A stretch of DNA of 42,985 nucleotides from Candidatus Vogelbacteria bacterium (GTDB lineage Bacteria; Patescibacteriota; Minisyncoccia; Phycocordibacterales; XYD1-FULL-46-19), in NCBI GenBank assembly GCA_903864935.1, contig CAIPHT010000014.1, positions 1-42,985 on the forward strand, written 5' to 3'. The position numbers and the translations under genes were made by a program. The notes beneath the pieces were generated by a model, which was given only the letters and a program-made list of their open reading frames with translations, did no database searches and was not told the DNA's origin. Positions 10,746 to 12,239 of this stretch are shown in pieces (the first letter of the stretch is position 1; every line of letters starts with the position of its first letter).

Positions 10746-12239
<1,494 letters not shown>

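Follow-up and report, generated by a model that had tools for sequence, protein, structure and literature searches.

The window, by which we mean the whole stretch of 42,985 nucleotides that was analysed, contains a 16S rRNA gene for which an earlier note, made from the sequence, had proposed loss of the anti-Shine-Dalgarno (anti-SD) sequence. The locus raises the question whether this loss is real, what has taken the place of the anti-SD, and how start codons can be selected in its absence.

The 16S rRNA gene (10746-12239, plus strand; Rfam limits) is full length. It matches the bacterial SSU rRNA family RF00177 with 1358.9 bits (gathering score 50) over model positions 1-1533. At its 3′ end GTCGTAACAAGG is followed by CACGGCTAGC (12203-12212), GGAA (12213-12216) and GCTGGTCGTG (12217-12226), then by GA (12227-12228), TTTATTTCAAA (12229-12239) and TTGAAC. 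Helix 45 (CACGGCUAGC-GGAA-GCUGGUCGUG, 12203-12226, plus strand) is intact, as the earlier note had stated. The GGAA loop is kept, including the two adenines that are normally dimethylated, and all 10 pairs of the 10-bp stem (G-U pairs counted) are 100% paired in 33 distinct relatives, with compensatory changes at two pairs. Besides the full-length covariance-model match and a helix 45 with GGAA loop, a bacterial SSU rRNA of the RF00177 type has a single-stranded 3′ tail carrying CCUCC, which is missing here. The tail of the window gene (12227-12239) is GAUUUAUUUCAAA, whereas the E. coli counterpart is GAUCACCUCCUUA; GA and the linker UUUAU (12227-12233, plus strand) occupy the usual place of GAUCA and the start of the anti-SD. 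The replacement of GAUCACCUCCUUA by GAUUUAUUUCAAA was read correctly in the earlier note, and the same junction occurs in three independent metagenome assemblies. Two details needed correction: the tail is real but starts at 12227, position 12226 being the last G of helix 45, and the loss of the core is real but does not affect all core positions except one. In an ungapped comparison with GAUCACCUCCUUA three of the five are replaced, the U and the last C being kept; one of the four core C is left. We conclude that the gene truly lacks an anti-SD sequence. Taken with the evidence below, the gene is very probably functional and expressed, and comes from a CPR bacterium of the Parcubacteria (Paceibacteria type) that belongs to a deep clade without anti-SD. 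In this clade helix 45 is followed directly by a short linker and a mini-hairpin of 3-5 bp instead of the single-stranded tail UCACCUCCUUA.

To place the gene among its relatives, one genome per GTDB species was scanned with a pattern anchored on helix 45 and not on the tail, which yielded at least 119 loci, or 120 sequences with the window. CCUCC or a one-base variant was kept in 81 of 81 listed loci with other helix-45 types, two of which read UCUCC. Among the matches listed, these loci included Actinomycetota, Chloroflexota, Magasanik- and Falkowbacteria and others. The canonical tail is also kept in one Yanofskybacteria-labelled locus with a CAAG-type helix 45. By contrast, CCUCC was missing in 36 of the 36 listed sequences with the helix-45 type of the window (CACGnnUAGC-GGAA-GCUnnnCGUG), the window included; the 16S 3′ ends of related Parcubacteria thus share the loss. 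The 36 are labelled Kaiser-, Nomura-, Taylor- and Ryanbacteria, Paceibacteria/Paceibacterota and 'Parcubacteria group'; a few carry obviously wrong labels (Saccharibacteria, Spiroplasmataceae). The best 16S matches among those listed, at 79-82% identity, come from MAGs labelled Taylorbacteria, Paceibacterota, Paceibacteria and Ryanbacteria and from two labelled 'bacterium' and 'Saccharibacteria', all with a CACG-type helix 45. Judged by these similarities, the window 16S is affiliated with Parcubacteria/Paceibacteria, and CCTCCT is absent from its 3′ end as in the anti-SD-less Parcubacteria subgroup (PMC9297842). Since the closest anti-SD-less relative among the matches listed is only 82% identical, the loss must be old.

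When metagenomes were scanned for this helix 45 followed by a canonical tail, 39 contigs were found; most share 72-80% identity with the window 16S, values above 80% occurring only in alignments of at most 244 nt. The anti-SD-less clade is therefore nested in a wider anti-SD-bearing group, and none of the 39 represents a second copy from the window organism. The CACG type of helix 45 as a marker of the loss was rejected: in this sample it is necessary, but the 39 canonical-tailed contigs share it, and it is not sufficient. Two side observations came from these scans. The MAG labels of several loci (Spiroplasmataceae, Gammaproteobacteria, Saccharibacteria; L060, L003, L010, L019, L024, L007, L018 and others) clash with their Parcubacteria/CPR-type 16S, and are probably due to mis-binned contigs or generic labels. 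In nine metagenome loci with canonical-tailed CPR 16S (L121, L129, L131, L133, L139, L141, L145, L155, L157) helix 45 is preceded by ACATGAACAAGG or TCATGAACAAGG in place of the universally conserved GTCGTAACAAGG, a change that may mark the 3′ boundary of an inserted sequence or intron lying just before helix 45.

The window gene is transcribed on its own and has all the features expected of a working transcription unit: a promoter, a processing stem and a terminator, all on the plus strand. A sigma-70-type promoter-like site (TTGACG-16-TATAAT) lies at 10510-10537 and a second, weaker one at 10583-10612. The 5′ leader strand (10670-10744) folds with the 3′ trailer strand (12350-12429) into a long, near-continuous processing stem round the 16S (approximately 30 bp, -48 kcal/mol); the trailer strand and hairpins at approximately 12247-12346 together make up the spacer. 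A terminator-like hairpin with a T run follows at 12432-12461. Neither 23S nor 5S rRNA genes were found in the 43-kb window. In the relative L032, no further widely conserved (rRNA-like) stretch was seen beside the 16S in its 8-kb locus, and an adjacent 23S is probably missing there too.

RNA-seq data showed that the window 16S is expressed. In RNA-seq run X26 an organism-specific unitig covers 12113-12184 at a depth of 248. For unitigs at 97% likeness the depth in this run is approximately 200 at 12220-12227 and 35 at 12228-12235, and from 12236 it is 0 in X26, X27 and X29, which indicates that the spacer, including CUCCUC at 12283-12288, is not part of the mature rRNA. Raw RNA reads of run X23 contained none on the window and six on the relative L103, none of them covering the tail. 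Unitigs of relatives in the RNA runs X9 and X26 (depth 114-180) traverse the hairpin and end 16 nt after GGA (...GGA-AUAAUUCAAUUUGAAA), and one relative's unitig in X29 ends 20 nt beyond 12226, approximately 18 nt past the window GGA position; such ends may be graph branches, and a DNA unitig in X2 likewise ends 23 nt after GGA. These data bracket the mature 3′ end of the window 16S between approximately 12232 and 12250, probably a few nucleotides beyond the Rfam limit, and the unitig ends of the relatives give a weak hint that the hairpin is kept in the mature rRNA.

Before turning to the replacement tail we considered whether the loss could be apparent only. 16S genes are hard to assemble from metagenomes and their conserved stretches attract chimeras, hence a wrong tail might have been joined onto a normal 16S. 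The helix 45-tail junction is, however, carried by unitigs of three unrelated metagenomes (Logan): in lake water (X1) an 855-nt contig matches 12199-12500 without a single difference, a freshwater metagenome (X2) has a 1425-nt unbranched unitig across 11900-12500, and a further freshwater metagenome (X6) contains the junction as well. The same kind of tail is found in 35 other loci from different projects. The chance that the junction is an assembly error is virtually nil. An anti-SD that is merely displaced, by an intervening sequence before a downstream CCUCC, or that is supplied by a second 16S copy, would also leave the gene as we see it. Insertions are common in CPR rRNA genes, approximately 150 nt separate helix 45 from the processing stem (12227 to approximately 12376) with CUCCUC at 12283-12288, and a few genes have canonical SD motifs. 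Yet this CUCCUC sits in a stem-loop of a spacer hairpin, in a region where RNA-seq depth is 0 as opposed to approximately 250 for the 16S body. Of 35 clade members, 34 have no CCTCC in the first 200 nt past GGA, and none was found over this distance after the window 16S. CACCTCCTT is absent from the plus strand near the 16S gene; the window has a single perfect match to it, at 13511-13519, where it is complementary to an mRNA SD site. A search for an intervening sequence or intron that displaces the 3′ tail thus found no canonical tail downstream, as judged by the 200 nt and by RNA-seq depth. As to a second copy, no near-identical one with a canonical tail was found, given the identities of the canonical-tailed contigs described above, and the X2 unitig, being unbranched through the junction, argues against a copy with the same 3′ domain and another tail in the X2 population. 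We consider a displaced or duplicated anti-SD extremely improbable. Two other ways of silencing an anti-SD were rejected. Sequestration of a retained anti-SD, as in Bacteroidetes, does not apply as CCUCC is missing from the 16S gene itself, and post-transcriptional removal through cleavage of 16S by MazF or RelE, a concept described in PMC12274833 and PMC12620021, does not apply as the gene encodes no canonical tail. The loss of the anti-SD from the gene thus stands.

In place of the single-stranded anti-SD the window 16S has a mini-hairpin, UUCA-AAU-UGAA (12234-12244, plus strand), whose position is conserved in the clade and whose stem covaries. The hairpin follows 4-6 nt after GGA, and the linker in between, of 4-5 nt, varies among relatives (UUAA, ACAA, AUAA, ACAUA). 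Hairpins of relatives include UCC-AAUU-GGA, CUCA-AAU-UGAG, GUC-AAUU-GAC, UUAA-ACUU-UUAA and UCCU-AGUA-AGGA. Because an unconstrained hairpin search has little power in A/T-rich sequence, the tails were tested for hairpins in register and aligned with a covariance model. Watson-Crick hairpins in register (3-5 bp, loop of 3-5) were present in 29 of 34 tails, compared with a mean of 6.6 and a maximum of 15 in shuffled tails and with 8-13 at other offsets. For the alignment, a covariance model was built from ten in-register sequences and 35 sequences were realigned onto it; in this alignment, which is thus fitted to the model, 94.4% of the cells of the hairpin pairs are paired, four of the four pairs show changes on both sides, and the structure as a whole has a covariation score of 0.262, compared with 0.077 in shuffles and no more than 0.051 with slid partners. 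Sequence conservation ends 1-3 nt past the hairpin. By these comparisons of sequences the replacement tail is conserved and structured, not random. One Ryanbacteria-labelled MAG (L053, 5058-5135, minus strand) has the tail GGA-UUUUC-UCCU-AGUA-AGGA-UUACC, in which an SD-like AGGA pairs in cis with CUCCU, a remnant of the anti-SD; UCC/GGA stems are kept in many relatives. The L053 tail is a possible intermediate between the canonical tail and the UUCA/UGAA mini-hairpin.

Several readings of this element were considered. The mini-hairpin may act outside the ribosome as a signal for precursor processing or 3′ trimming, the mature 16S ending right after helix 45. The RNA-seq unitigs of the window organism itself, which end at approximately 12232, agree with this, and trailer hairpins adjoin the 16S 3′ end in many bacteria. 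On the other side, RNA-run unitigs of relatives pass the hairpin and end 16 nt after GGA (X9, X26), or approximately 18 nt past it in another case, sequence conservation stops just past the hairpin, and the last 10-20 nt of an RNA are under-represented by random-primed cDNA. We regard the processing signal as possible but rather unlikely. Alternatively, the anti-SD may have been replaced by a new selected rRNA element, a 'helix 46' mini-hairpin that is kept at the mature 3′ end, where it would sit at the platform site of the SD:anti-SD duplex or cap the 3′ end, and that may descend from intramolecular SD:anti-SD pairing. We put this forward tentatively, as a proposal that could well be wrong; if it were true, these ribosomes would have a built-in mimic of the SD helix and be hard-wired for SD-independent initiation. 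Finally, the new tail could serve as a substitute anti-SD by pairing with a new A/U-rich motif located before start codons. The upstream regions are indeed A/U-rich, and some hold AAAUAAAU-like strings complementary to AUUUAUUU in the tail. When the real tail was paired with positions -22 to -3 of 37 window genes, no pairing signal was seen against control regions and shuffled tails: the mean was -2.3 kcal/mol, weaker than in the control regions (-3.0 to -3.3), and shuffled tails gave -2.65, 80% of the shuffles being at least as good as the real tail. Moreover, the linker varies freely among relatives, and the conserved part is self-folded. This makes a replacement anti-SD very improbable. On the whole, the data suggest, as the most likely course, that the mature 3′ end retains the mini-hairpin, which may protect or define that end or fill the platform pocket.

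With the anti-SD gone from the 16S, the ribosomes are unable to form an SD:anti-SD helix. The use of SD motifs was compared between groups by counting strong SD 5-mers at -18 to -4, with positional windows as controls (reversed SD k-mers are unusable, being themselves SD-like). In anti-SD-less relatives 7 of 170 genes had such a 5-mer, compared with 2-6 of 170 in five control windows (not enriched, Fisher p = 0.77), whereas in anti-SD-bearing CPR loci the motif was enriched (29/288 against 5-8/288 in controls, Fisher p = 2e-4). In the anti-SD-bearing sister group of the same helix-45 type it was found before 20 of 161 genes. In these counts gene starts were set by a crude longest-ORF rule, the samples are small and some metagenome loci are near-duplicates.

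The earlier note had remarked that the loss fits a leaderless promoter geometry in the window, and the counts bear this out. In 7 of 35 window genes and 34 of 170 genes of anti-SD-less relatives, together 41/205 (20%), the ATG is preceded at 5-10 nt by a good -10 box (TAnnnT, at least 5/6 matches). At a control distance the figure is 6/205 (Fisher p = 3e-8), and in anti-SD-bearing CPR loci it is 35/288 (p = 0.02). Leaderless-type starts in the window include TAAAAT-6-ATG at 17985, TAGAAT-8-ATG at 8164, TAGAAT-8-ATG at 39541 (minus strand) and TAGAAT-7-ATG at 14078. Such a promoter geometry is what leaderless mRNAs would require. The other genes lie for the most part in tight operons: at about half of the junctions between same-strand genes of the window the neighbours overlap or are at most 10 nt apart, the clearest case being that of the glycosyltransferase/methyltransferase genes at 24645-39541, and the 20 nt upstream of starts are 72% A+T. 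We infer a mode of initiation in which the first genes of transcription units would be translated from leaderless or near-leaderless mRNAs, because of the -10 box 5-10 nt before the ATG. Downstream genes of operons would be reached through termination-reinitiation or coupling at overlapping or abutting stop and start codons, and the start regions of internal cistrons would be A/U-rich and weakly structured. Pfam scans found no translation genes in the window; in the anti-SD-less Parcubacteria subgroup (PMC9297842), uL1 (rplA) is lacking and bS21 and Era are frequently missing.

Some genes do not fit. SD-like motifs at the right spacing precede five window genes, at 5961, 6854, 12609, 13525 and, weakly, 26334-27065. 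FolD (5961) has AAAGGAGAA and the ORF at 6854 has AAAGGAGA. GAAGGAG (12595-12601, plus strand) lies 7 nt before ATG 12609 of a GC-rich 93-aa ORF (12609-12890), which is located between the 16S and tRNA-Ile and has a perfect sigma-70-type promoter at 12510-12537 and a leader of approximately 65 nt. The most striking case is AAGGAGGTGAT (13511-13521, plus strand), an 11-nt perfect complement of the canonical 16S tail placed 3 nt before ATG 13525 of an ORFan. Chance does not account for it: from base frequencies, the probability is estimated at approximately 1e-4 for a position of this kind and at 0.02 for the window as a whole. This SD is an unexplained outlier and argues against complete loss of SD use. 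The genes at 6854, 12609 and 13525 are the three most GC-rich of the window (0.50-0.58, against 0.36-0.47 for the others), and none of the three has a Pfam match. For the 13525 protein no homologue was found among 5.8 billion proteins. Its gene lies just 3′ of a tRNA-Ile with a duplicated 3′ half, which is likely an integration site. The simplest reading of these sequence features is that 13525 may be a recent import from an SD-using donor. For 6854 recent import is not supported: a 69%-identical homologue occurs in the same FolD-x-PAP2 synteny on another contig.

The tRNA-Ile(GAU) gene (13227-13303) is flanked by exact partial copies of itself, the whole spanning 13106-13385: 17 nt of the 5′ end at 13106-13122, 14 nt of the anticodon arm at 13151-13164 and the 39-nt 3′ half at 13347-13385. 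The 'tRNA-Stop (tta)' called by ARAGORN at 13296-13385 overlaps tRNA-Ile and owes its sequence to the duplicated 3′ half. Taken together, the outer fragments resemble a second tRNA-Ile broken in the D loop and after position 37, or integration scars.

Loss of the anti-SD has been published at the level of the clade, and the window is a new, well-supported example. Tsurumaki et al. (2022; RNA 28:1041, PMC9297842) found the anti-SD motif missing in about half of Parcubacteria (it was detected in 48%), and the anti-SD-less subgroup overlaps the group that lacks uL1. Our observations agree with that paper in that CPR/Parcubacteria 16S lack CCUCCU at the 3′ end clade-wide. The paper gives motif detection only and is silent on the replacement, on SD usage and on leaderless geometry, whereas we found a covarying mini-hairpin and no SD enrichment. 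The literature searched contained no description of the mini-hairpin, of missing SD enrichment or of leaderless geometry in the anti-SD-less clade, though one may exist beyond it. The earlier note had called anti-SD loss rare and known from a few reduced-genome lineages. That the loss is known was right, but in a Parcubacteria subgroup it is clade-wide and published (PMC9297842), hence less rare and less new than stated. In reduced-genome bacteria it was described by Lim et al. (2012, PMC3457768) and by Amin et al. (2018) and Nikolaeva et al. (2021), both as cited in PMC9297842. As in those cases, the CCUCC core is gone from an otherwise functional 16S in small genomes. Those losses, however, concern scattered single lineages (endosymbionts, Mollicutes), whereas here a deep, species-rich and environmentally widespread clade has a conserved, structured tail.

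Other known systems resemble the window clade in part. In Bacteroidetes, as in the window clade, few genes are preceded by an SD motif, and the start regions are rich in A and unstructured. Bacteroidetes, however, retain the anti-SD, sequestered by ribosomal proteins, whereas in the window clade it is gone. Eukaryotic 18S and mammalian mitochondrial 12S rRNA keep helix 45 with the dimethyl-adenine loop and have a tail without CCUCC; the eukaryotic 18S tail is GGAUCAUUA, and mitochondrial mRNAs are largely leaderless. Unlike the window tail, the 18S and 12S tails are short and single-stranded and have no mini-hairpin, and the two kinds are phylogenetically unrelated. That mammalian mitochondrial rRNA has no anti-SD is stated in PMC10582724. 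The KH domain of Era recognises GAUCACCUCC just after helix 45 (PMC10582724). A 2025 survey reported that Paceibacteria are without rplA and der and mostly without era (PMC12641178). Missing Era fits a clade in which GAUCACCUCC is gone.

With the anti-SD missing from the rRNA gene itself, this clade is without the textbook means by which bacteria choose start codons. As the clade is large, abundant and free-living or episymbiotic, it offers a natural system for SD-independent and leaderless initiation, and a cultured relative, Minisyncoccus archaeiphilus (PMC12281837), whose lineage used to be assigned to class Ca. Paceibacteria (PMC9763046), now renders the mechanism testable. The mini-hairpin, if present in the mature ribosome, would be a new clade-specific feature of rRNA. 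There are practical consequences as well: gene prediction that gives weight to SD motifs will put starts in the wrong place in these genomes, the 3′ ends of annotated 16S genes probably fall short by a few nucleotides, and primers or probes for the canonical 16S 3′ end will miss the clade.

Some other genes of the window deserve mention. A 1014-aa ORF (14069-17113) encodes a class-V aminotransferase (IscS/NifS-like, residues 19-393) fused to a C-terminal SAM methyltransferase domain (residues 792-928); its start is likely the leaderless ATG at 14078 and not 14069. The tight operon at 24645-39541 (minus strand, 15 kb) comprises genes for glycosyltransferases, methyltransferases, LicD, a polysaccharide deacetylase and a flippase, and nearly all of its stops and starts overlap or lie at most 10 nt apart. 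A gene for a TrwB-like coupling protein is located at 22944-24665.
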